A stretch of DNA of 50,248 nt, taken from positions 1-50,248 of IMG/VR virus record IMGVR_UViG_3300026320_000003; one strand, given 5' to 3'. The translations under genes and the position numbers were made by a program. Positions 6,718 to 19,345 of the stretch are shown in pieces (position 1 is the stretch's first letter; each line of letters opens with the position of its first letter). The stretch is from a virus (Duplodnaviria; Caudoviricetes). The notes beneath the pieces are model-generated. The model made no database searches. It was given only the letters and a program-made list of their open reading frames with translations, and was not told the DNA's origin.

Positions 6718-7254
6718 ATGATCCTCGACGCCCTACTTCAATTCGACAACGCTGTGTCCCTTGCAATCGCAGTTGGTTCACAAGTATCCACCAATGTCAT
6801 CGACCTCGGAATCACCTCTGGTATTCCCACTTCCGCCTCAGGCGGTGGAGCCAGAGACATCGGCATCGGTGACGATCCGGCAATGAAGCTCTTGGTCCAG
6901 GTCTCTACGACCTTTACCTCTGGCGGTGCAGCTACTTTGGCTGTCGCCCTTCAAGGCGCAGTCGACAACGGCGCTGGTGCCCCTGCCGCCTTCTCTACCT
7001 GGTGGACCTCACCAGCCTACGCCCTTGCTACCCTTGTGGCGGGAGCCCGACTCTACGATATGGATATGCCTAGGCCACCCGATGGCATCGCCATTCCTCG
7101 GTTCCTTCGACTCAACTACACCATAGGTGGCGCTACAGTCACTGCTGGCAACGTCTCATCCTACATCGTCCTCGATCGAGACGACCAGCCCTACCAAGGC
7201 ACTGATAATTCCGTCATGGGTGGATACCCTGCCGGGATCAACGTCGCGAACTGA
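6718..7254 (+). CDS. Bbp16-like capsid cement/decoration protein
   Basis: MILDALLQF...STNVIDLG...RDIGIG...RFLRLNYT; follows the MCP. Confidence 0.8.
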   Translation: MILDALLQFDNAVSLAIAVGSQVSTNVIDLGITSGIPTSASGGGARDIGIGDDPAMKLLVQVSTTFTSGGAATLAVALQGAVDNGAGAPAAFSTWWTSPAYALATLVAGARLYDMDMPRPPDGIAIPRFLRLNYTIGGATVTAGNVSSYIVLDRDDQPYQGTDNSVMGGYPAGINVAN

Positions 7255-7263
7255 GGCCCAGTC

Positions 7264-7731
7264 ATGAAAAGACTTCTCAAATACATAGGGGTGGCAGCCT
7301 TCGCTGGGCTTGCCACCCTAGCAGTGGCCCAACCTGTTATCTCAACCCAGGTCAATTCCAACACAGTCGTCCGAGCCGCACAAGGTCCTGGTGGCTCGGA
7401 CAGTTGGCTTGGCGTCGATACTATTAGCAACCGCGCTCGATTTACCTCTACCACAGGGCAAACCGGAGCCGCTACTTCCACCGCCTCAGGCGGCACTCTC
7501 TATTGGATCGGCACGGCTCCAACAACTTGGGCCGTAACGCTTCCGCTTAACCCCACCGCCGGTGAATTGGTAACCCTTGTCACCGATACAACTCTCACTA
7601 CCATGGTAACTGTTACAGCCAACACTGGTGATACCCTTCACGCCACCTACACCTCACAGACCCTTACCGCCCTTACCCCTGTAACCTTTCAGTATCAACT
7701 CTCCTCACGTACATGGTTCAGGTTAATGTAA
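7264..7731 (+). CDS. Thr-rich beta protein with Sec-type signal peptide
   Basis: MKRLLKYIGVAAFAGLATLAVA-Q. Confidence 0.75.
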   Translation: MKRLLKYIGVAAFAGLATLAVAQPVISTQVNSNTVVRAAQGPGGSDSWLGVDTISNRARFTSTTGQTGAATSTASGGTLYWIGTAPTTWAVTLPLNPTAGELVTLVTDTTLTTMVTVTANTGDTLHATYTSQTLTALTPVTFQYQLSSRTWFRLM

Positions 7732-8576
7732 TGTCGCGTATCTCTCGTAGACACCTACTTCGTGGCGGTGGCGCTCTTGCTGCCACGAAGCTACTTACGC
7801 CTGCAAGTGCTGGTTTTATATTAGGCAAAGCTGGTGGTGGGGGAGGCTATCACGCTTTGGCGGTGCATTTTGACGGTAGCACATCACTATTATGTAACAG
7901 TCTAAGCTGCACCGACAGTCGGTATGTTCTCTATGTGGTGTGGACTAAGCTTCCGCTGCCTTTATCCAGCAATAGAGGTTCCACGTTACTGTGTTCAGAC
8001 CCCGATACCGAAGTGAACAATTTATTTAATATCTCAGTCAACAATAGCGGTAATTCCCTAATTGTGTTTGAGACTGGCGCGATTCCATTCAGCAGTGGAA
8101 ATACAAACTATGTAGCTGTCCAGAACCCATGGAATGAGGGGTGGTTAAATCTCATTTATGTCATTGATTCATTACACGCTGCTGGTGTGAAGCCAAAGGC
8201 AGTCTATATCAATGATGTTCTAGTCCCCGATACCAATACAGATACGAGTGGCCCCTACGTTGCCCAGTTCAACGGTCTCAAGACAACTATCGGGACGGAT
8301 AATTTCGACCTCGTACTCGGCGACATCGCCGATATGCAGCTTTACCTCTTGTCAAATGACCCGTTTGTCGCTGGGGCGCTTCCAGAGGCAACTCGTCGCC
8401 TGTTTATTGGCGCCAATGGCAAGCCGGTAAACCCGGCGACTGCGATGGCAACGCTTGGAACTCCGGTGTTGATATTCAGCGGTGATGCGATAACCTTCCC
8501 CACCAACCAAGGTACTGGTGGTGCATTCAGCCTTACCGGCACCCTGACCAACGCCACCACAAGCCCGAGTGATTAA
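7731..8576 (+). CDS. LamG/concanavalin-like protein with Tat-like signal
   Basis: MSRISRRHLLRGGGALAA...PASA; AVHFDGS, VYINDV and GDIAD LamG-like motifs. Confidence 0.7.
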   Translation: MSRISRRHLLRGGGALAATKLLTPASAGFILGKAGGGGGYHALAVHFDGSTSLLCNSLSCTDSRYVLYVVWTKLPLPLSSNRGSTLLCSDPDTEVNNLFNISVNNSGNSLIVFETGAIPFSSGNTNYVAVQNPWNEGWLNLIYVIDSLHAAGVKPKAVYINDVLVPDTNTDTSGPYVAQFNGLKTTIGTDNFDLVLGDIADMQLYLLSNDPFVAGALPEATRRLFIGANGKPVNPATAMATLGTPVLIFSGDAITFPTNQGTGGAFSLTGTLTNATTSPSD

Positions 8577-8603
8577 ACCGTGAAACCCAATGGAGATATC
8601 TAC

Positions 8604-9047
8604 ATGCGCAAATACATCATTCCTTCTTTGCTTATTCTAGCTCTGGGTCTCGGTCTTGCCGTTGCCCAGAACATCACCAAGGCCCTCCAACTATCTCAAG
8701 ACGCAACTGGCGCCTTTGGCGTTGATACCAGCAACGGTGTCTACTTCCCTGGCCACATCCTATCCACAGGCAAACCGGCTCCGGCACTAACTGCCTGTGT
8801 CACTGGAGGCACTCCCACCTTGGTCGGTACTGACTTCTCTGGCGTTATCACAGCAGGAACTACTGCCTCCACTTCTTGCGTTGTAACCTTCGGCACAGCC
8901 TATGTAACAGCGCCAAACTGCGTTGTCTCTTGGCAATCTGGGCCATTGGCTGCAATGTCTTGGGCTACCTCAACTACGGCCCTCACTATTACCCAAACCT
9001 CCAATGCGAGTTCTAAAATCGCATACATCTGTACGAGTGCATCATGA
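8604..9047 (+). CDS. Exported-type beta protein (fibre tip-like)
   Basis: MRKYIIPSLLILALGLGLAVA-Q; VTFGTAYVTAPNCVV; GGAG RBS. Confidence 0.7.
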   Translation: MRKYIIPSLLILALGLGLAVAQNITKALQLSQDATGAFGVDTSNGVYFPGHILSTGKPAPALTACVTGGTPTLVGTDFSGVITAGTTASTSCVVTFGTAYVTAPNCVVSWQSGPLAAMSWATSTTALTITQTSNASSKIAYICTSAS

Positions 9048-9850
9048 GAAAGCTTAGCGCTGGACTTCTACTCCTTCTTGGGCTAGCCAGTCCGGCGTTA
9101 GCCCAGACTAAGTTTACCCTACCTCCTCCATCTGGGGTCTTCCTTGGTGGGTATCAAGTTGTCACCACCTGCGGAGCAGCCTCAGGCCTAGCTGCAGGAA
9201 ACCTCGCCTTCGGTGCAATGGATACCACAGGGGCAATTTGTACCTCGGCCACAGGTGGTGGAGGAGGTGGTGCTGCCACCATCGCCAACGGAGCCGATGT
9301 AGCTGAAGGCTCTACTACCGATGCTGCCTCTACCGCTGGCGGCACTGGTACCCTCTCTGCCAAGCTTCGCTTGATGACAACTCAGCTTGGTACTATCAAT
9401 ACCACCCTCGGTTCTCCCTTCCAAGCTGGGGCCTCAATCGCCAATACCACCTTTGGTGCAACCCAAGCTACTGCGGCCAATCTTAATGCTACCGTAGTTG
9501 GCACCGGTACCTTCGCTGTTCAAGCAACTACTCAAGGCGCTGTCAATATCACCCTGACCGACTGCTCCGGAACCATCGCCGCTGGTGGCGCGGCCCAAAA
9601 CGCTTTCACTGCTGCCTCTACCCGTCACGGCTTCACCATCGCCAACATAGATACTACCGAAGTCCTTTGGATGTCCTTTACCACAACTGCCGCCGCCTCT
9701 GGCACAGGTTCCTATCCTTTGGCTTCAGCTACAGCTGTCACCTTTACTGGGCTCTCTTCTTTTACCAGCCCTCCAGGTATGGGGATCAACACTGCCCTTT
9801 CTGTAATCGCTGCCACCACTGCACATAAGTTCTCCTGTACGGTTTGGTAA
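9044..9850 (+). CDS. Ala/Thr/Gly-rich exported-type protein
   Basis: MRKLSAGLLLLLGLASPALA-Q; 4 Cys. Confidence 0.7.
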   Translation: MRKLSAGLLLLLGLASPALAQTKFTLPPPSGVFLGGYQVVTTCGAASGLAAGNLAFGAMDTTGAICTSATGGGGGGAATIANGADVAEGSTTDAASTAGGTGTLSAKLRLMTTQLGTINTTLGSPFQAGASIANTTFGATQATAANLNATVVGTGTFAVQATTQGAVNITLTDCSGTIAAGGAAQNAFTAASTRHGFTIANIDTTEVLWMSFTTTAAASGTGSYPLASATAVTFTGLSSFTSPPGMGINTALSVIAATTAHKFSCTVW

Positions 9851-9851
9851 C

Positions 9852-10646
9852 ATGAAGCGCTTAGCCTCCTTTGCAATAGTCTTCTTCTTCTTCCTCGTCG
9901 TGCCCACTGATGCTCAATTCCAGCGTGAATGCCGATATGGCTTTTGTAACTCATCTACGACACTCGTATTTGACCCATTTTGGACCAGCGTCAAATTATT
10001 GATGGGTTTCAACGGCTCTAACGGGTCCACTGGCGCCCCAGGTATGACTGACGAGAGTAGTGCCGCACATGGTACAGCTACCGTCGCCGGGGGACCGCAG
10101 ATAAGCACGGCGCAGTCAGTATTTGGAGGGTCGTCCATATTATTTAGTGCAAATGGAAATATTACCTTCCCCGATAGTGCTGACTTTGATTTATCAAACC
10201 AGTCCTTTACACTTGAAATGCGTTTTCGTCCGGCGTCGATAAGTGGAGGTATCTCCTTCTTAATTGATCAGTGGACTAGTCCTAATAATGGCTGGGCGCT
10301 TTATCAGAACAATGCCACCCTTAATTTTGATGGCAGTACGACCGGCTCAAATGATGTTGTCATAATAAGTGTCGCCAGCGCCTTAACCTTGAACACATGG
10401 ATCGCTCTTTGCGTTGATTTCGATGGCACTAAATATCGAATGTACAAAGATGGCGTAATGATTGGTTCTTCGACTTCAACGATGACCTTCTTCAACTCGG
10501 CCAGTGTATTGGATATTGGTAACAATCCAGGGGCTGCTTTTTTTCTCAACGGCAACATCGATGAATTACGATACACCAAAGGCGTCGCACGTTACGCCAG
10601 CGATGGCGGATATACCGTGGCGACAGCGCAATTTCCGCGACAATGA
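9852..10646 (+). CDS. LamG/concanavalin A-like domain protein with signal peptide
   Basis: SVKLLMGFNG, STAQSVFGGSS, FTLEMRF, LNGNIDELRYTKGVARY. Confidence 0.82.
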   Translation: MKRLASFAIVFFFFLVVPTDAQFQRECRYGFCNSSTTLVFDPFWTSVKLLMGFNGSNGSTGAPGMTDESSAAHGTATVAGGPQISTAQSVFGGSSILFSANGNITFPDSADFDLSNQSFTLEMRFRPASISGGISFLIDQWTSPNNGWALYQNNATLNFDGSTTGSNDVVIISVASALTLNTWIALCVDFDGTKYRMYKDGVMIGSSTSTMTFFNSASVLDIGNNPGAAFFLNGNIDELRYTKGVARYASDGGYTVATAQFPRQ

Positions 10647-10665
10647 TCAGGTAGAGGCTGTAACC

Positions 10666-11517
10666 GTGCATCGTGGATTAGTAACTAGACGAGGACTTCT
10701 TCGAGCTGCCGGCTTTGCTGCGCCAGCAATACTACTATCGCATAGCGCCCCGGCACAATTCACCGGTTGCCTGCCAGCATTTTGCTCACGTCCTTCTTTC
10801 ACCCCAGCGATCTCCGGCATAGTTGGCATGTGGGACGCAAGTAATTTCCCAAGCCTTACTCTTAGCGGAGCAGATATCCTCAGCGTCGCTGATGGAAGTG
10901 GTGGCGGTAATACTATGACTCCGGCCGGTAGTGGTCATAAACCACAATACAACGCAACTGGATTTAATTCACGTCCAGCTATGGTCTTTACTGCTACCGA
11001 TCTAGGCGCATTTGAAGCTGCATCGTTCCCTATTGGAACTGGCAATACGCTTACAGTATGGTATGTTGGAACCTTAGCCAATAATGCTTCCCAACCTTTC
11101 GGCCGTTTTATGTCGTATACTAAACCGGCTGCCGCCGCCGACTTCAACAACGTCGGTTCATTTGGGATGACGACAAACTCCGGTTCGCAGACACTAGTAC
11201 AAGTAGCTAATAACAGTGTTTTCGTCACTAATAGCGGCCTAGCCGCCCCTCCCGCAGGACACCGGATAATTGTTACAAAGGACTCCAGTGGAGTTATAAC
11301 AATTTATGTAGACGGTGTTGCGGGTACTCCCGCTACATCTGTCGGTAATTGGGTCAGCGCTGGTTTTGCAAACATTGGTATGCAACATGCTAGCATTGCA
11401 TCTGGAGTTGATTTTATATCAGCAGCAGTAGGCGAATGCGGTATAGCCACAAGCTTTAACAATTCAGCTGCTGTTGCAGCTATCGATGTAGGTCTGAAAA
11501 ACAAATGGGGACTATAA
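10666..11517 (+). CDS. LamG-like protein with Tat-like signal
   Basis: GTG start after GAGG; TRRGLLRAAGFAAPAILL...APA-Q; MWDAS, ADGSGGGN, IYVDG, C-terminal LKNKWGL. Confidence 0.72.
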   Translation: MHRGLVTRRGLLRAAGFAAPAILLSHSAPAQFTGCLPAFCSRPSFTPAISGIVGMWDASNFPSLTLSGADILSVADGSGGGNTMTPAGSGHKPQYNATGFNSRPAMVFTATDLGAFEAASFPIGTGNTLTVWYVGTLANNASQPFGRFMSYTKPAAAADFNNVGSFGMTTNSGSQTLVQVANNSVFVTNSGLAAPPAGHRIIVTKDSSGVITIYVDGVAGTPATSVGNWVSAGFANIGMQHASIASGVDFISAAVGECGIATSFNNSAAVAAIDVGLKNKWGL

Positions 11518-11539
11518 CTCTAACCAAAAGGAAAATCCT

Positions 11540-12055
11540 ATGGCACGATGGAGACTGATCACCGGACACTATCTCAATGTTCTTCTCGACGGCCAATCAG
11601 CCGAATGGGAATACAAAGAGATTGACCGCAACACCGGCAAGCAGGCGAGGAAAATCTTCCCTGTCCCAATGCTTATGGACCCGAACGATCCTGCTGATTG
11701 CAACTACCCAGGCGAAATCATCGTCTGTCATGAAGGCAAAGGCGAACGCCGGGATATCGTCTTCGTCGGCAATCCCACCCCAGATATGGAACCTTATGAC
11801 GAAGAAGCTGAGGCCATCTCTGCCTCCCTTCGCCAGAAGTGGGAGCACCCAATCGAATCTCTTCCAACAACCATGTCTGATGGCGAATCTGCCTTCATGG
11901 CGAAGCTGATGGAGGCAATGGGTCAGGCGAAGCCAGCCGCCAACGCTTCGGTCTCTATTGAACAATACAACGAACTTAAATCCCTCGTCGAAGACCTCAA
12001 GGCCCAACTTGCTACGTCCAAACCCTCTTCCCCTGTCACCGAACGTAGAGTATAA
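11540..12055 (+). CDS. Hypothetical protein ending TERRV
   Basis: AGGA RBS; long ORF within the operon. Confidence 0.75.
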   Translation: MARWRLITGHYLNVLLDGQSAEWEYKEIDRNTGKQARKIFPVPMLMDPNDPADCNYPGEIIVCHEGKGERRDIVFVGNPTPDMEPYDEEAEAISASLRQKWEHPIESLPTTMSDGESAFMAKLMEAMGQAKPAANASVSIEQYNELKSLVEDLKAQLATSKPSSPVTERRV

Positions 12056-12058
12056 CTC

Positions 12059-12448
12059 ATGACAGTCCTCGGAGGCGTAGGTGCATCTCTTGTCTTCTCC
12101 TCGGCCAGTGGAGGTAAAGTCTATGGGTACAACAACGTCTCCGAGTTTGCTACTATAGTCGTAGCCCAAGCCAACCCTTCTCGCCAGTCTATCACCTTCC
12201 ATAATCCTGGCGCGAAGGATATCTTCATTGGCCCAGTAAATATACAGAATGTTCTTGGTACAGCTCCTACTACACCATCGAATGTTCCCTTGGCTCTCAG
12301 CAATGTTGCACTTGGTGGCTGCTTCCGGGTCTACGGCAATGGTGGGGCTTTAGTAATCTCTGGTGAGTGCCAGGGCGCTTGGCAAGCATTTGCCACGAGT
12401 GCTGCGGGGGCTACCAATCCGTTAACGGTTATGGAGTCTAACGTCTGA
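12059..12448 (+). CDS. Putative virion structural/decoration protein
   Basis: ANPSRQSITFHNPG...IFIG beta-sandwich-like motif. Confidence 0.65.
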   Translation: MTVLGGVGASLVFSSASGGKVYGYNNVSEFATIVVAQANPSRQSITFHNPGAKDIFIGPVNIQNVLGTAPTTPSNVPLALSNVALGGCFRVYGNGGALVISGECQGAWQAFATSAAGATNPLTVMESNV

Positions 12449-14055
12449 TGAAACGTGTCCTCCTAGCCTTAGCCCTTCTCTCCACCCTCGCCCTTGGCTC
12501 ATCTGAGGCCCAGAATACTACCTGCTCAGACCGGCCTGCTGGCGATTCCTCTAATGCCTGTGCCAATACTCGGTTCGTTCTAAACAATGGAGGCGGTGGT
12601 GGGGGAACTCCAGGAGGCCTAAACCTCCAAGTCCAATACAACAACGCTGGCGCCTTTGGTGGCCTAACCGATGCGCAGCTAACTGGTAAGATCATAGCCT
12701 TCACCTCTTCCCTCTCTGGAGCAGCTCCAGCCTCAGGCGGTGGTATCTTCAACTTCCTCCGAGCCGATGGCACCTGGGCCTCGCCCGGTAGCGGCTCAAC
12801 TATCGTAGGCACCATAATCCCTTGGGCTGGTGCATCAGTCCCGCCGAAGTATCTCTTAGCCTATGGCCAAGCAGTCAGTCGAGCAACCTATCCTGACCTA
12901 TTAACAACTATAACATTCCAGCCAAGCATAACCTGCACTTCCGGCTCGCCTACCTTTACTGTAGCAACAGCCACCAGCGACCGCGTCCCAATCGGCGCAG
13001 CAGTAGAGGCCTCAGCCTGCTTCACTGCTGGAAAGACAGTGATATCAAAAGCCTCTGGCTCTCTAACCCTAAGTGGCAACGCGATCGCTAGCACCACTAC
13101 CTCTGCTCGCATCTTCCCTTGGGGCAATGGTGACGGATCGACCACCTTTAACCTTCCTGATTTACAAGGCAGAACCCCAGCAGGCCGGGATAATATGAGT
13201 TCTGCTGCTGCTGGGCGATTAACAACTACCTTCTTTGGAGCAAACCCAGACGCCATCGCTGCTGGTGGCGGTAATCAATCTACCACCTTAGCACAAGCCA
13301 ACCTACCCAATATAATCCTAGCCACTAACATCATCGACCCAGGCCACGCGCATAATATAACTGGTTCTACGTCCAATGCTGGTAATGCCGGTATATTAGG
13401 CTCCTTCATATCGCAGATAGGTTCAGGTGGCTCCGGAGTTCTACTTGGGTCCGACGTACCAAATACCACTGGTATCATTGCGAACACCCCACTCGGCGGT
13501 ACCAACACCCCAGCTTCCCGAGTTCAACCAGCTATAACCGTTGACTATATCATTAAAGTCCTTGCTGATGATATCTCCGTTGGTGGTGGTATCACAGTTG
13601 GTTCGACTGTTGTAAACAACGGCTCGACCACCAATGTCCTCTACAATAACGCTGGAGTCCTTGGTGAATATGCCCTCGCCACCCTACCCGACATGTATGC
13701 AGGCACCGCCAACAATAAGCTTGTCACCCCAAGCGTCATTTGGCCAACCGAGACCACTACCACGTTTGGCTCTACCACCACCTTCGACTTCTCCACCTTT
13801 CGAGACACCAAAGTCACTCTCACTGGCAACATCACCACAATGACGGTCTCTAACGTCGTAGTCGGCAAAGCTGGCTCAATTGCTTTCATCCAAGATGGTA
13901 CTGGTAGCCGAACCACCGTTTGGAGTTCAACCTTCAAGTTCGCAGGTGGAACTACCCCAACCCTTACCACTACCGCAGGTGCTGTAGACATCCTATCTTA
14001 TTCCTGCCGAACCTCTACCTTCTGTTACGCTGCAATGATGAATGATGTCAAATAA
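12448..14055 (+). CDS. Tail fibre-like protein with phage tail collar domain and signal peptide
   Basis: VGTIIPWAG..PPKYLLAYGQAVSRATYPDL...GDGSTTFNLPDLQGR collar motif; QVQYNNAGAFGG; C-terminal IQDGTGSRT/TTAGAVDIL. Confidence 0.8.
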   Translation: MKRVLLALALLSTLALGSSEAQNTTCSDRPAGDSSNACANTRFVLNNGGGGGGTPGGLNLQVQYNNAGAFGGLTDAQLTGKIIAFTSSLSGAAPASGGGIFNFLRADGTWASPGSGSTIVGTIIPWAGASVPPKYLLAYGQAVSRATYPDLLTTITFQPSITCTSGSPTFTVATATSDRVPIGAAVEASACFTAGKTVISKASGSLTLSGNAIASTTTSARIFPWGNGDGSTTFNLPDLQGRTPAGRDNMSSAAAGRLTTTFFGANPDAIAAGGGNQSTTLAQANLPNIILATNIIDPGHAHNITGSTSNAGNAGILGSFISQIGSGGSGVLLGSDVPNTTGIIANTPLGGTNTPASRVQPAITVDYIIKVLADDISVGGGITVGSTVVNNGSTTNVLYNNAGVLGEYALATLPDMYAGTANNKLVTPSVIWPTETTTTFGSTTTFDFSTFRDTKVTLTGNITTMTVSNVVVGKAGSIAFIQDGTGSRTTVWSSTFKFAGGTTPTLTTTAGAVDILSYSCRTSTFCYAAMMNDVK

Positions 14056-14957: not shown

Positions 14958-15151
14958 GTAAGGACACCCTAGACGAGTATGGCTCCGACTCCTACGTCGG
15001 TCAGGCTCCACGTGCTACCAACGGTGGCCACTGTGAGCCAAAGCCAATCCCGTACTCCCCACCTAAGGGCCCAACCAACATTGGCGATCCCAAATCGCCC
15101 GGCCTCCATGGAACCAACCACGGCTGCTGCGGAACCCAAGGGAGACATTAA
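14954..15151 (+). CDS. Small protein ending HGCCGTQGRH
   Basis: GGAGG RBS and ATGA overlap. Confidence 0.65.
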   Translation: MSKDTLDEYGSDSYVGQAPRATNGGHCEPKPIPYSPPKGPTNIGDPKSPGLHGTNHGCCGTQGRH

Positions 15152-15152
15152 G

Positions 15153-15446
15153 ATGCAAGGAATCGGTTGGGCTGTTAAACAGATGCAAGATGGGCATGCT
15201 GTTAGACGTAGTGGTTGGAACGGCAAAGGTATGTTTATATGCCTAATGCCCGAACTGCAATTGCCGCCATTCAATACACAGGATACAAATCGAAAGGTAA
15301 ATGATCGTACAGCTAAATGGATTGGTGAAGATCAATCCTTGAATTGTCGCCCGTACATTGCAATGTACAATGCACAAAAGGAATGGCAACCTGGATGGTT
15401 ATGCTCCCAAGCTGATCTTTTAGCTACTGATTGGGAACTTGTGTAA
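15153..15446 (+). CDS. DUF2829 / Tad2-like protein (putative anti-Thoeris sponge)
   Basis: AVKQMQDGHAVRRSGWNGKGMFI...PYIAM...GWLCSQADLLATDWELV. Confidence 0.8.
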   Translation: MQGIGWAVKQMQDGHAVRRSGWNGKGMFICLMPELQLPPFNTQDTNRKVNDRTAKWIGEDQSLNCRPYIAMYNAQKEWQPGWLCSQADLLATDWELV

Positions 15447-16534
15447 TGACCACCAAAACCGACATCGTTAACCTTGCCTTGCAAGCCTTTGGCTCACGCA
15501 CAACGGTGACCGATGCGGAACTTCTTGCCAACTCCACTAACGAAGCGATACAGGCTAACCTGACCTATAACAACACTCGGGATAGCCTGCTTCGCCTTGC
15601 ACCCTGGGATTGCGGCTTGGCCACTGCTAATCTTGCCTACATCACCTCCATCGCTGGTACTCCAGAGAATACCTCCCCAGCCACCAATCTCTGGCAACCT
15701 GGTCAGCCTCCCCCACCTTGGGCCTATGAATATCAATATCCCAACGACTGCCTCCGTGCCTGTTGGGTTATCCCAGCCCAGAACACTGGCTTTGCAGGCG
15801 GGGTCCCCATCACCACCGCTGTAACCGGTGGGGCGCCTTCGTCTATGCTTGGAGCCCCAGCTCGCTTCAAGGTCCAAGTCGACAAGTTCGTCCCAGTAAC
15901 TGCCGCTGCGGTAGTCTCTGGTGGAGTAGGTTATGCTATTGGTGATATTATTACACTTGCTTCAGGGCCGACAGATTCTCCTCCTTTGGGTGCTCCTGCT
16001 CAGCTTCTCGTTGGGAGTGTGGCTGCTGGTGTTATCACTTCTGTTTCGGTGGTTTCTCAAGTAATCGATGCGAACCCGCCACTTGGTGGCTCCTACTTCG
16101 TTCCGCAAACCAACCCCGTAGCTCAAGGCTCAACTACTGGCTCGGGCTCCGGCGCTACCTTCAATCTAACCTTCGGCCCTCAAGCCTCCCAACGTGTCAT
16201 CCTCTGCAATCAAGAATTCGCCACCCTCGCCTACGTTCGCCAAATAACCGACCCCAACATCTGGGACCCGATGTTTCAAGATGCCATGGCGAATAAGCTC
16301 GGCGCTGATATCGTCATGGGCCTTACTGGCGACAAGCCTCTCGCTAATATGCTTATCCAACTCGCCAATCTATCCATCACCGAAGCCCGTAAGGTTGATG
16401 GTAATGAAGGCCTTACCGTCAACGACGCCACGCCAGATTGGATTCGCGTTCGAGGCATCTGGTGGACGGATGGTTTCCAATCTGGACCCTATAACGCATT
16501 CGATTGGGGAGGCCTACTCCCGACTTTCTTTTAA
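15446..16534 (+). CDS. Tail tubular protein A (adaptor) with inserted beta domain
   Basis: DIVNLALQAFG, RDSLLRLAPW, WAYEYQYPNDCLR, WDPMFQDAM, PDWIRVRG. Confidence 0.8.
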   Translation: MTTKTDIVNLALQAFGSRTTVTDAELLANSTNEAIQANLTYNNTRDSLLRLAPWDCGLATANLAYITSIAGTPENTSPATNLWQPGQPPPPWAYEYQYPNDCLRACWVIPAQNTGFAGGVPITTAVTGGAPSSMLGAPARFKVQVDKFVPVTAAAVVSGGVGYAIGDIITLASGPTDSPPLGAPAQLLVGSVAAGVITSVSVVSQVIDANPPLGGSYFVPQTNPVAQGSTTGSGSGATFNLTFGPQASQRVILCNQEFATLAYVRQITDPNIWDPMFQDAMANKLGADIVMGLTGDKPLANMLIQLANLSITEARKVDGNEGLTVNDATPDWIRVRGIWWTDGFQSGPYNAFDWGGLLPTFF

Positions 16535-16543
16535 GGATCACCT

Positions 16544-19345
16544 GTGGCTCAGCCAGTAATGCAATTCTCCTTCAACTCTGGCGAATGGGCACCAGCTCTA
16601 AACGCTCGCGTCGACATCGCCAAGTACCATTCCGGTGCTGCCCTCCTTCGAAACTTCTTCGTCGACTATCGAGGCGGAGCCACTGCTCGCCCTGGAACAA
16701 AGTATATTCTCCGGACCAGATTTACCACCACTACTAGATTAATCCCCTTTCAGGCTTCATTGACTGTATCCTATGTACTTGAGTTCGGCGAAGGTTATAT
16801 TCGATTCTTCAACAATGGCTCGCCAGTTTTAGAAGCAGGCGTAGCTATAACTGGAATCACCAATACCGCTGGCGAGGCTACTCTATCCGTAATTAACACC
16901 TATTCGGTAGGCGATTGGATATTCATCAATGGTGTTGTCGGGGCTACACAATTAAACAATAATTACTATATCATTTCAGCCGTCAGTGGCACTCAAATTA
17001 GACTAACCGATCTATTTGGCAATGCAATCCTATTCGCCTCGCTCTCGCCATATATCTCTGGTGGTATCGTAGCCAGGATATACACCCTGGCTACTCAATA
17101 CACAGCCAACGAATTATCTCTACTTAAGTTTGCACAAAACGTCAATACGATGATTTTATGCCATCCTAACCATCCACCTGCTATTTTGACTCTGATATCA
17201 GCTAATAACTGGAGTATTGTCTTTATCGCCTTTGGGACAACTATAGGAACGCCATCAGGATTGGTGACTACTACGACCTTAGCTGCTGGTGCTGTATATT
17301 ATGCTTATATCGTCACCACCGTTGATGGTGATGGTCAAGAGAGTGCACAATCTGTATATGCAACTCTTGGTCCTATAACAGATATTCGATCTGTAGCAGG
17401 AACCAATACCATCTCTTGGACTCCAGTGGCTGGTGCAGTTAGCTATAACGTATACCGAGCCGAACCTAGCTATGCTGGACCTATTCCGGCAGGTGCTACA
17501 TTTGGCTTTATCGGTAATGTACTTGGAACTTCGATAATTGATTCAAATATCGGGCCTGACTTTTCCTCGGGCCCACCAATAATCCAGAATCCATTCTTTG
17601 CTGCTGATGGCGTTGCTACGGTTTATGTAACAGCAACAGGTGTCTACACAGCCGTTCCAACTGTAACGTTTTCAGCATCGCCAGGGGTCACAGCTACCGG
17701 CACCGCTGTGTTACAATGTAATGCAGCAGCTATAAGCGCCGCAGGGATTAACTACGTAGTCGGCGATACCTTAGTTCTACCATCTGGCGTTGTTTTACAG
17801 GTGACTGCCATTGGTGGTGGTGGAGCAATCACTGGAGCAACGATAATCAATCATGGCTCCGTATCCGTAGGGGCTGTGCCAGCGAATCCTGCCGCTCAAA
17901 CCTCGACCAGCGGAATAGGTACTGGTGCCACCTTCAACCTAACTTGGGGACTTAGCCGAGTAAACATAGTCACTCCTGGATCAGGTTATACAGTCCCTCC
18001 ATCCCTAGCATTCTCAGGCGGTGCGGGTGGCGCTGCCATATCGGCACTTGGTTCGGCATCAATAGGCAATCCCACAGTCCCAGGCTTCTTTCAACAGAGA
18101 TTGGTTCTAGCTGGACCTGTAAGCTCCCCACAACAGTTTAATATGTCACAACCAGGGGCTTATTTTAATTTCAATACGAGCAATCCAGTAGAGCCAGACA
18201 ATGCCATCTCTGGAGTTCTAACTTCTGGTCAATTAAATACAATTCAGTCCATGATTATTCAGCCGCAAGGGCTGATTGTTTTTTCAGACAAGCAAGCTTG
18301 GCTAATCAACGGAGGCTCGCCTGGGGCGCCAGTATCTGCAACGCAAATCGTCGCCAACTCTCAAGCCTACAATGGCGCCAGCTTCCCGCCGCCGATCGTC
18401 GCCAATGATAACGTTCTCTATGTTCAATCTAAAAGCTCCATCGTTCGAGACCTTGTATTCAACTTCTATACTCAAGTCTACACCGGAACTGATATTTCTG
18501 TTCTTTCCTCCCATCTATTCTACGGCTTCTCCATCCTTGAGTGGGCTTGGGCCGAGGAGCCGTATAAGCTCGTTTGGGCAGTACGTGATGATGGCACCAT
18601 GCTTACCTTGACCTTCTTGAAGGAGCAAGACTTAATCGCTTGGACACACAGTGATACCAATGGTGCATTCAAGTCCGTTGCTTCCGTTGTTGAAGCCGTC
18701 CCAGCTGGGCAGGTTGATGCAGTTTATACAGTCGTTCAACGAATAATCAACGGAGTTACTGTTCAATATATCGAACGATTCGCAGAACTTTTCTACCCTG
18801 GTGGCATCGCTGATGCTTGGTGTGTGGATGCTGGGCTTCGTTATAATGGGGCTCCGGTCACGACCTTTTCTGGAGCCCAGCATCTAGCTGGGGCAATAGT
18901 GACTGGTTTAGCCGACGGCCAAGTTATTACTCCATTTGTTATGCCAGTAAGCGGTACTTTCGTCCTAGCCACTCCAGCTTCTAAGGTTGTAATTGGCCTT
19001 GCCTATACTCCTCAACTCCAAACCCTCCAACTCGACACTGGCGAGCCGACTATTCAAGGCAAAGAAAAGAAAATCAGTGCGGTGACAGTCAGGGTGAATC
19101 AAACTCTTGGCCTCTCTATTGGGCATACTATCAATACCATGGTACCCATGAAGGACCTAGTCCGGGGCAACGTCGGCTCGGCCACCAACCAAGTCGCTAC
19201 CGATCTTGTCACCGGTGATGCTATGACCATCATCGACCCCCGTTGGACTATCCCAGGTCAATACTTTATTCAACAATCCAATCCATTCCCAGCGTCCATC
19301 CTTGGAGTTATCCCGCAACTAACTGTAGGAAACACCGCCAAATGA
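16544..19345 (+). CDS. Tail tubular protein B (nozzle) with inserted domains
   Basis: QFSFNSGEWAP, GGATARPGT, YVLEFG, FFQQRLVLAG, VWAVRDDG, AWTHSDTNG, VDAGL. Confidence 0.88.
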   Translation: MAQPVMQFSFNSGEWAPALNARVDIAKYHSGAALLRNFFVDYRGGATARPGTKYILRTRFTTTTRLIPFQASLTVSYVLEFGEGYIRFFNNGSPVLEAGVAITGITNTAGEATLSVINTYSVGDWIFINGVVGATQLNNNYYIISAVSGTQIRLTDLFGNAILFASLSPYISGGIVARIYTLATQYTANELSLLKFAQNVNTMILCHPNHPPAILTLISANNWSIVFIAFGTTIGTPSGLVTTTTLAAGAVYYAYIVTTVDGDGQESAQSVYATLGPITDIRSVAGTNTISWTPVAGAVSYNVYRAEPSYAGPIPAGATFGFIGNVLGTSIIDSNIGPDFSSGPPIIQNPFFAADGVATVYVTATGVYTAVPTVTFSASPGVTATGTAVLQCNAAAISAAGINYVVGDTLVLPSGVVLQVTAIGGGGAITGATIINHGSVSVGAVPANPAAQTSTSGIGTGATFNLTWGLSRVNIVTPGSGYTVPPSLAFSGGAGGAAISALGSASIGNPTVPGFFQQRLVLAGPVSSPQQFNMSQPGAYFNFNTSNPVEPDNAISGVLTSGQLNTIQSMIIQPQGLIVFSDKQAWLINGGSPGAPVSATQIVANSQAYNGASFPPPIVANDNVLYVQSKSSIVRDLVFNFYTQVYTGTDISVLSSHLFYGFSILEWAWAEEPYKLVWAVRDDGTMLTLTFLKEQDLIAWTHSDTNGAFKSVASVVEAVPAGQVDAVYTVVQRIINGVTVQYIERFAELFYPGGIADAWCVDAGLRYNGAPVTTFSGAQHLAGAIVTGLADGQVITPFVMPVSGTFVLATPASKVVIGLAYTPQLQTLQLDTGEPTIQGKEKKISAVTVRVNQTLGLSIGHTINTMVPMKDLVRGNVGSATNQVATDLVTGDAMTIIDPRWTIPGQYFIQQSNPFPASILGVIPQLTVGNTAK

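Follow-up and report, generated by a model that had tools for sequence, protein, structure and literature searches.

The 50,248-nucleotide stretch of viral DNA analysed here (IMG/VR record IMGVR_UViG_3300026320_000003; Duplodnaviria, Caudoviricetes), referred to below as the window, is a complete podovirus genome (record completeness 100%) with an exact terminal repeat of 127 bp at its ends. Embedded in its late operon, with stops and starts overlapping, is a block of nine genes, g1 to g9 (positions 7264-14055, + strand), seven of whose products begin with sequences resembling bacterial export signals, five of the general secretory (Sec) type and two with a twin-arginine (RR) motif. A first-pass annotation had pointed to this arrangement. 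Our analysis makes it very probable that these export signals are genuine and that the proteins bearing them fold with disulfides outside the cytoplasm. We give an even chance to the further proposal that the block is a host-recognition and decoration module built in two compartments, with a fibre (g9) docking when lysis merges the two; both export and virion membership of the block proteins are predictions from sequence. The nine genes are listed below, with cysteine (Cys) counts for the mature parts of the signal-bearing products.

7264..7731, + strand: g1, 155 amino acids (aa); Sec-type signal MKRLLKYIGVAAFAGLATLAVA followed by Q, cleavage predicted after residue 22 (AVA-Q); 0 Cys
7731..8576, + strand: g2, 281 aa; RR-type signal MSRISRRHLLRGGG...PASA-G; 3 Cys
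8604..9047, + strand: g3, 147 aa; Sec-type signal MRKYIIPSLLILALGLGLAVA followed by Q (AVA-Q); 4 Cys
9044..9850, + strand: g4, 268 aa; Sec-type signal MRKLSAGLLLLLGLASPALA followed by Q (ALA-Q); 4 Cys; start overlaps the g3 stop
9852..10646, + strand: g5, 264 aa; Sec-type signal MKRLASFAIVFFFFLVVPTDA followed by Q (TDA-Q), then QFQRECRYGFC and a LamG-type lectin fold; 3 Cys
10666..11517, + strand: g6, 283 aa; GTG start; RR-type signal ..VTRRGLLRAAGFAAPAILLSHSAPA followed by Q (APA-Q), then QFTGCLPAFC; 3 Cys
11540..12055, + strand: g7, 171 aa; no signal; conserved, in 51/80 related loci; precedes the g8-g9 pair
12059..12448, + strand: g8, 129 aa; no signal; jelly-roll protein
12448..14055, + strand: g9, 535 aa; Sec-type signal MKRVLLALALLSTLALGSSEA followed by Q (SEA-Q); 6 Cys; start overlaps the g8 stop

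Signals were called, in the window and in its relatives alike, by a lenient rule-based script run on crude gene calls; the script takes the first signal-like start among nearby starts, which inflates signal counts. By this rule seven of the nine block open reading frames (ORFs) are positive, the exceptions being those at 11540 and 12059, compared with 6 of the 61 other gene calls (70 crude calls in all; Fisher p = 4e-5). An enrichment of this kind had been put forward for testing with SignalP, and it is seen here with the rule. Of the six positives elsewhere in the genome, just one, the lipobox protein at 29575, looks like the carrier of a real signal. The five Sec-type N-termini are 20-22 residues long and consist of MKR or MRK, a hydrophobic core and an AxA-type site, then Gln. 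All five have the layout of Sec and signal peptidase I substrates as defined by our rule, namely a basic n-region, an uncharged h-region of ~10-15 residues and small residues at -3 and -1 within a total of ~18-30. Gln occupies position +1 of the predicted cleavage site in six of the seven signal-bearing proteins, as had been reported.

The twin-arginine half of the original assignment fared less well. The motif S/T-R-R-x-F/L-L-K/R is present in g2 (7731, SRRHLLR) and g6 (10666, TRRGLLR), but the former lies below the cut-off of the Pfam twin-arginine model and the latter does not match it. NCBIfam returned no twin-arginine translocation (Tat) match and nothing useful for the nine block proteins and the 29575 protein, and the h-region of 7731 is short, with 8 residues before it is broken by Lys. 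On sequence grounds, the two N-termini are Tat-like rather than Tat, and this call is weaker than the Sec call.

The signals are retained across a large clade of uncultured related phages with 82-96% identical capsid proteins. A capsid-protein scan of viral contigs gave at least 597 stretches, and the best 80 loci, in which the capsid protein is 87-96% identical, were analysed. In these 80 loci, tblastn matches number 72 for the phrog_427 protein at the left border of the block, 51 for g7, 25 for g8, 21 for g1, 16 for g3, 11 for g9, 6 for g4, 3 for g6, 1 for g5 and 0 for g2. With counts ranging from 72/80 to 0/80, the block is a hypervariable cassette whose surrounding frame is conserved. For 27 loci, 7 kb or more of sequence lies past the capsid gene; in these, most ORFs located between phrog_427 and g7 are signal-positive, as is the large ORF after g8. 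Clustering at 70% identity of all + strand proteins 100 aa or longer, taken from the window together with 83 clade loci, gave 580 clusters. Of these, 126 of the 279 in the block were signal-positive, versus 20 of the 301 elsewhere (p = 3e-28), which bears out the expectation that homologues would keep their signals. Canonical signals with n-, h- and c-regions occur on dozens of unrelated mature sequences in the cluster listing. For individual genes, relatives carry a signal in 16 clusters for g1 (2 clusters unflagged), in 7 of 7 for g3 and in 6 of 6 for g4.

These figures bear directly on the possibility that the hydrophobic N-termini are due to chance or to gene calling with wrongly chosen starts. 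The rule does favour the first signal-like nearby start, and it flags some implausible ORFs. Nonetheless, each of the five Sec-type starts is the first ATG past the preceding stop or overlaps that stop, and several have GGAG-like sites upstream; the GTG start of g6 lies 20 nt past the preceding stop. The enrichment holds both in the window and in the clade, and the modules conserved directly after the cleavage site fix both frame and start region. We give an artefact almost no credence.

A second line of evidence comes from the parity of cysteine counts. Of the signal-bearing clusters in the block, 103 have an even number of mature Cys, 14 an odd number and 9 none (even in 103 of the 117 that contain Cys), whereas signal-less block clusters divide into 53 even, 58 odd and 42 zero (even in 53 of 111; p = 4e-11). 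Over all clusters, the even/odd/zero counts are 114/18/14 with a signal and 143/165/126 without (p = 6e-16). The bias towards even counts is absent from other virion proteins, although these also reach the cell exterior. In the window, the counts of 4, 4 and 6 given earlier for g3, g4 and g9 are correct, yet three other proteins of the block have odd numbers.

The module that follows the signal of g9 offers a closer view of this relationship. In a table of 45 proteins carrying [R/K/P]P.GD.SN.xA.T.FV, both Cys accompany a signal in 40 (39 by script, plus P0283, which the regular expression misclassed and whose signal was read by eye), a signal stands without either Cys in 3, and the signal and both Cys are missing together in 2 (P0261 and P0281); a single Cys occurs in none (signal/Cys association, p = 0.01). 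The signal-less P0261 (765 aa) begins five residues ahead of the module and is 67% identical to g9 residues 23-107, with C26 and C38 of g9 both replaced. Two further clade contigs retain the signal, with the Cys pair moved to just upstream of the module, and two scans with degenerate patterns returned only those two clade contigs, both with the signal. The 79 loci retrieved with P0261 matched via body repeats, and the module was present in none of them (0/79). Gain and loss of the Cys as a pair, with the pair gone where the signal is gone, is what a periplasmic disulfide would predict.

Signals are also exchanged within a family. The LamG proteins with the pattern QF..C...FC have an RR-type signal in the window (g6) and in loci L004 and L002, and a Sec-type signal in L078 and in an 823-aa protein of L004. 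Because the N-termini are kept across unrelated, fast-changing proteins, swap between Sec and RR types in one family and go with paired Cys, the data support the view that they behave as real export signals.

It might still be argued that the signal-like N-termini do not serve to export the virion pool, being uncleaved tethers or assembly tags, or that export is shut off late, so that fibres join in the cytoplasm and disulfides form after release. To our knowledge, tailed-phage assembly is cytoplasmic in every studied case, and cleavage of the N-termini is a prediction here. Capsid 'signal peptides' of other phages have, moreover, been interpreted as protease-removed segments in the account given in PMC10367356. 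This reading is difficult to square with the canonical layout and AxA-Q site found on many unrelated proteins, with the Sec/RR swap in a single family, and with Cys pairs that follow the signal while other virion proteins lack the even-count bias. In addition, the signal-less fibres at the equivalent locus of sister phages, described below, are Cys-poor, with 1-3 Cys per fibre versus 6-22 in signal-bearing fibres. We consider it quite improbable that the signals are unused.

With respect to function, g9 continues after its signal and a conserved Cys-pair module (QNTTCSDRPAGDSSNACANTRFV) with a Gly linker, then fibre repeats and a collar domain, and it ends in a variable tip. The collar domain (PF07484) is recognized at E 1e-14 (54.2 bits, cut-off 24), and the protein matches 8 PHROG tail families and 4 unnamed ones. 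Its relatives share the signal, then QN(T/V)xC..RP.GD.(S/T)NACA.T.FV and a Gly linker, followed by diverse bodies: a search with g9 residues 1-110 recovered 256 proteins with the same N-region on collar, pectate-lyase, beta-helix, peptidase S74, YadA-type, DUF5907 and other bodies. This pattern is the classic one of swappable receptor-binding modules on a constant docking end. The earlier statement that no T7 gp17-type anchored fibre is seen elsewhere agrees with our scan of the late ORFs, which revealed no further fibre-like gene.

Comparison with sister phages reveals how g9 may be attached. In layout A, that of the window, g8 homologues (119-133 aa, no signal) are followed by a signal-bearing module fibre in all 14 contexts whose next gene is full-length; 12 of these 14 signals are flagged by the rule, and the N-termini in L016 and L028 are hydrophobic without a basic residue. 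In layout B, a different signal-less protein of 136-143 aa follows g7 and precedes a signal-bearing fibre in 6 of 6 contexts, these fibres beginning QCNGVFPNNTVCGN or QD..VP.GGGPGVVGW. In layout C, the anchor domain of layout B forms residues 1-135 of signal-less fibres (from L051, L057 and L072; lengths, in ascending order, 424, 827 and 841 aa), followed by a Gly linker and a body that shares repeats with mature signal-bearing fibres. Fused and free forms of the anchor domain are 30-60% identical, and g9 residues 64-140 match residues 315-390 and 528-576 of the L057 fibre.

Structure prediction places the layout B/C domain in a familiar setting. Its model (predicted local distance difference test, pLDDT, 81) matches residues 79-176 of CBA120 TSP4 (Z 12.3, root-mean-square deviation 2.6 over 96 residues), a KP1 baseplate chain (Z 11.4, Foldseek E 2e-5) and, in T4, baseplate chain 5iv5_AC (E 9e-4) and gp9 (E 0.013). 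As modelled, the anchor of the sister phages is a T4 gp10-type domain, and in branched receptor-binding complexes, domains of this type provide the platform on which other spikes dock. The g8 model (pLDDT 85) is a jelly roll whose best match is PM2 spike P1 (Z 9.8 over 88 residues, a common-fold match), with no Foldseek match at E of 1e-3 or below. Sequence searches of solved structures gave no match for g9 and chance-level rows only for the g8 and layout-B anchor profiles.

The g8 family comprises 737 clusters at 90% identity, none of them informatively named (the few names read 'hypothetical protein'). No longer forms emerged from a word search among 873 candidates, whereas an exhaustive profile search returned 139 representatives, mostly free-standing and 100-150 aa long, with one fused form and four multi-repeat giants. 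The fused form, P0225 (883 aa, signal-less), has a g8-like domain at residues 16-107 (E 1e-6), and its remainder gives weak PHROG tail-spike and tail-fibre matches (4e-5 to 1e-5); Pfam found no families in the fused fibres, the signal-bearing fibres or P0225. In both layouts A and B, the small signal-less protein thus appears to be a domain that heads a spike or fibre elsewhere, and we propose g8 as the virion-side fibre anchor. A joint prediction of three copies of g8 with three copies of g9 mature residues 1-60 scored 0.21 against a mark of 0.32 and counts neither way. As a separate observation on this fold, P0184, P0189, P0205 and P0256 (1422-2355 aa) contain 7-16 tandem copies of the g8-like jelly-roll domain; P0184 has a signal-like segment at its start and a hydrophobic tail at its end.

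The remaining products of the block gave a more uneven picture than the LamG-like, fibre-like or collar-domain proteins described at first. The LamG assignment stands for g5 (PF13385, Laminin_G_3; E 2e-18, 67.3 bits, cut-off 27.6), which also has PHROG matches to virion structural and baseplate proteins, and the collar assignment stands for g9. The LamG match of g6 is weak (PF13385 E 0.011, 16.3 bits, under the same cut-off). No family was found in Pfam or PHROG for g1, g2 and g3, tblastn recovered no g2 relative in the 80 related loci, and the sole match of g4 is phrog_22789 (unnamed, of unknown function; E 1.9e-4). Atlas look-alikes of g3 are unnamed viral clusters, with tailspike-type families among the structural rows (a lead only), and g7 has no family in Pfam or PHROG and no usable Atlas match. 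A QF..C...FC loop right after the signal is common to at least six LamG-type proteins with differing bodies (window 9912-10790; L002, L004 and L078). In g5 and g6 this post-signal segment could be a disulfide loop that acts as a second docking peptide.

Building from these observations, we propose the following route. Head, portal, tail tube and nozzle would be assembled in the cytoplasm along with g7 and g8, the latter two presumed to be seated at tail tubular A and the nozzle. The products g1-g6 and g9 would leave the cytoplasm through Sec or Tat, and signal peptidase I would process them at AxA-Q; the exposed N-terminal Gln may cyclise, and the Cys pairs would be oxidised in the periplasm. 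When holin, endolysin and spanin break the envelope, the N-module of periplasmic g9 would dock onto tail-borne g8. On this scheme, the step that brings periplasmic fibres to particles would come from the lysis genes at 28725-29949, which encode the endolysin, the membrane protein and the lipobox protein.

Our confidence differs between the parts of this scheme. We take g9 to be a virion part because of its tail-like domains, its pairing with a signal-less anchor, the fused signal-less counterparts and the lack of another fibre gene among the late ORFs scanned, and we moderately favour its identification as a distal tail fibre docking on g8. For the whole chain, with joining after export, the chances are even at best, and that g1-g6 are also attached to the virion is unlikely. 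The first-pass annotation had suggested export, periplasmic disulfide formation and addition to virions at or after lysis. From this proposal, the signals behave as real, the Cys pairs track them, and docking of g9 on a signal-less anchor gains indirect support, while export itself, cleavage and presence in the virion are inferred. In its most general form, the idea is that of two-compartment virions whose fibres, and perhaps lectin-like decorations, are exported, disulfide-bonded, N-terminally capped and joined to a signal-less anchor only after the holin breach, with fibre modules switching routes by gaining or losing the signal together with the Cys pair. This generalization we put forward tentatively, at somewhat less than even chances.

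A different explanation accepts the signals as real and places the exported proteins outside the virion. They would act in the periplasm or envelope, in receptor masking or modification, phage exclusion, adhesion or the protection of progeny from debris, and the particle would recognize its host by other means such as extra domains of tubular A or the nozzle, in both of which inserted domains are present. Such roles fit the lack of virion-family matches for g1-g4 and the occurrence of LamG and collar domains in secreted bacterial proteins, and the source annotation of two g9 relatives reads 'microcystin-dependent protein'. Parallels can be found in Porphyromonas phage genes with signals exposing an N-terminal Gln, interpreted as envelope modifiers in the passages devoted to them (PMC10367356), and in the signal-bearing, fibre-like adhesins that Bdellovibrio is described as making for its own surface (PMC10769870). 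The block genes, however, lie inside the late virion operon, and none of the seven signal-bearing proteins was found to have an outer-membrane targeting feature (lipobox, autotransporter or type IX secretion system domain). Furthermore, g9 shares fibre repeats and its N-module with signal-less fibres, sits at the locus of the sister phages' ordinary anchored fibres, is paired with an anchor-type protein and is the only fibre-like gene in the late ORFs scanned. Overall we judge a non-virion role unlikely, if well worth keeping in view; the envelope-acting, non-virion alternative raised at the outset may nonetheless apply to g1-g6, the cassette products encoded upstream of 11540.

Several points weigh against the two-compartment proposal. 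With respect to the signals, the rule yields false positives outside the block (e.g., 1939 and 14590), the Pfam TAT_signal model PF10518 gives 20.4 bits for 7731 against a cut-off of 22.7 and no match for 10666, and three of the seven window proteins (g2, g5 and g6) have an odd number of Cys, namely 3 each. Signal-less siblings of the g9 module number only two, and their gene starts are possibly mis-called; disulfides could in principle form after release instead of in the periplasm. With respect to the anchor, the fold of g8 differs from the gp10-like anchor of the sister phages (hhalign of the two families, 24% probability), g8 has no following fibre in two loci (L059 and L082) and no match among 50,697 phage records, and the fusion argument reaches it by position and through one fused protein (E 1e-6). 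The clade has no cultured member: capsid identity is below 60% in all 103 matching phage records and at most 55.5% for the closest cultured phages (Enterobacter BUCT554, Salmonella 66FD, phiV10 and others). Finally, we know of no precedent for trimeric fibres meeting particles in the brief interval of lysis.

Known systems resemble the block in part. Modular receptor-binding proteins with an N-terminal anchor or a T4 gp10-like domain (CBA120 TSP4, T4 gp10/gp9, KP1) likewise combine a conserved proximal docking part with swappable distal bodies; here, in contrast, a Sec signal and a disulfide module open the distal part, which is made as its own polypeptide, and the window's anchor candidate g8 is a jelly roll, not a gp10 fold. 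Coat proteins of filamentous (Ff) phages and phage lysis proteins (spanins, SAR endolysins, T4 RI) use host Sec, and some need periplasmic disulfides. Ff virions, however, lack both head and tail and are assembled at the membrane, and the signal-bearing lysis proteins form no part of the virion; the window, too, encodes a lipobox protein, at 29575.

Among cellular structures, the mosaic adhesive trimer (MAT) fibres of Bdellovibrio are described as having a signal peptide, a conserved N-terminal part and variable, swappable tips (PMC10769870). As phage-fibre-like trimers they are alike by description. MATs belong to the predator's own surface and have a conserved N-domain of ~130 aa, versus a module of ~25 aa here, and unlike MATs, the block genes lie in a phage late operon beside a signal-less anchor. 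The Porphyromonas gingivalis phage genes with Q-rule signal peptides are of unknown function and are read as envelope modifiers, the passages that treat them naming no tail parts (PMC10367356, PMC5837995). Shared with them are signals of the signal peptidase I type that expose an N-terminal Gln (six of seven in the window, 92/164 in the clade); they differ in that Shine-Dalgarno (SD)-like sites precede 35 of 70 genes here. In literature searches aimed at tail parts, supplements excepted (those of PMC10367356 may list signal-bearing phage genes), we found no publication describing signal peptides on tailed-phage tail fibres. In none of the compared systems does a tailed-phage fibre carry an export signal, and what the present work contributes is the evidence from split versus fused anchors, the signal-less, Cys-less siblings and the Cys parity statistics.

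Were the proposal correct, the place and timing at which this abundant lineage of soil phages acquires infectivity would differ from the textbook account. The fitness of the phages would be tied to the host's Sec, Tat and Dsb systems, and the route would explain how these fibres can use disulfide-rich lectin folds as well as offering a path for module exchange between phage fibres and secreted bacterial adhesins. For annotation, a signal peptide in a tail module would not by itself be grounds for the label 'moron'. The split and fused anchors, together with the signal-less, Cys-less siblings, make the idea directly testable.

In terms of host lineage, the Gln at +1 was compared across three sets using one strict signal rule, as the lenient rule gives mostly false positives on high-GC bacterial DNA. 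Gln follows 92 of 164 signals (56%) in the phage clade, 15 of 30 (50%) in 200 kb of a genome labelled a Terriglobia metagenome-assembled genome (MAG; G001), which holds the related contig L083, and 2 of 39 (5%) in 200 kb of Ralstonia condita (G002). Neither of the two genomes yielded a match to the glutaminyl cyclase family PF05096, type II cyclases lying outside this search, and a literature search on this cyclase and signal peptides in Acidobacteria found no paper. SD-like sites before half of the genes are unusual for Bacteroidota. Deducing a Bacteroidota host from the Q-rule alone is rejected in view of these sites (35 of 70 genes) and of the same Gln bias in the Terriglobia-labelled MAG. 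Because SD-like sites precede 35 of 70 genes, we read the Gln bias as an adaptation to a host lineage with the same habit, possibly Acidobacteriota, although phage contigs binned into MAGs are weak host evidence. The papers on the Q-rule, in the comparisons they present, cover Bacteroidetes, Chlorobi, Spirochaetes, Chlamydiae and Cyanobacteria only and call the rule Bacteroidetes-specific (PMC5837995, PMC10653852); it may extend to Acidobacteriota.

The block is flanked by recognizable late genes, all on the + strand, and the replication genes lie on the - strand. The late order is as follows.

222, + strand: terminase
2217, + strand: portal-type protein
4878, + strand: scaffold/protease-like protein
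5660, + strand: major capsid protein
6718..7254, + strand: phrog_427 protein (the 'cement' gene of the first-pass annotation), left border of the block; PHROG 2e-21; no signal; 0 Cys; in 72/80 related loci
7264-14055, + strand: signal-bearing block (g1-g9)
Between the block and tail tubular A, + strand: small genes
15446-16534, + strand: tail tubular A; phrog_394 2e-37; not flagged for a signal
16544-19345, + strand: nozzle B; phrog_376 1e-152; not flagged for a signal
19342 and 19775, + strand: internal virion proteins
After the internal virion proteins, + strand: 585-aa protein and 2210-aa protein
28725..29949, + strand: lysis genes, namely GH108 endolysin (28725; PF05838 9e-20 and PF09374), small membrane protein and lipobox protein (29575)

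The lipobox protein at 29575 starts MKKLLILSILLALGAC. No tRNA was detected in the window, and promoter-like and terminator-like sites are not in excess between 4500 and 17000, where their counts are at the level of shuffled sequence. Tail tubular A has 362 residues, where distant relatives have ~197, and the nozzle has 933. Inserted segments in the two (tubular A residues 141-254 and nozzle residues 95-155) match PHROG head-decoration and tail families and could be receptor-binding or docking surfaces. Directly upstream of tubular A, a 155-aa ORF (14979-15446) matches phrog_1048 and phrog_872 (unknown function, 7e-25).

Distant relatives (capsid identity 40-71%) occur as prophages in the genomes of Ralstonia, Pseudomonas, Acetobacteraceae and Gastranaerophilales. 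In a compact order without the cassette, their capsid and phrog_427 genes are separated by one to three small ORFs from those for tubular A and the nozzle. In L082, a contig of a MAG labelled Candidatus Egaibacter danicus, g7 and g8 are followed directly by tubular A, and the stretch has neither a fibre gene nor a signal-bearing cassette. Lastly, a small Cys/His-rich ORF that by eye resembles an HNH-type homing endonuclease lies directly after the anchor gene in L015 (6919-7395) and L059 (9058-9495); in L015 it sits between the anchor gene and the signal-bearing fibre gene.

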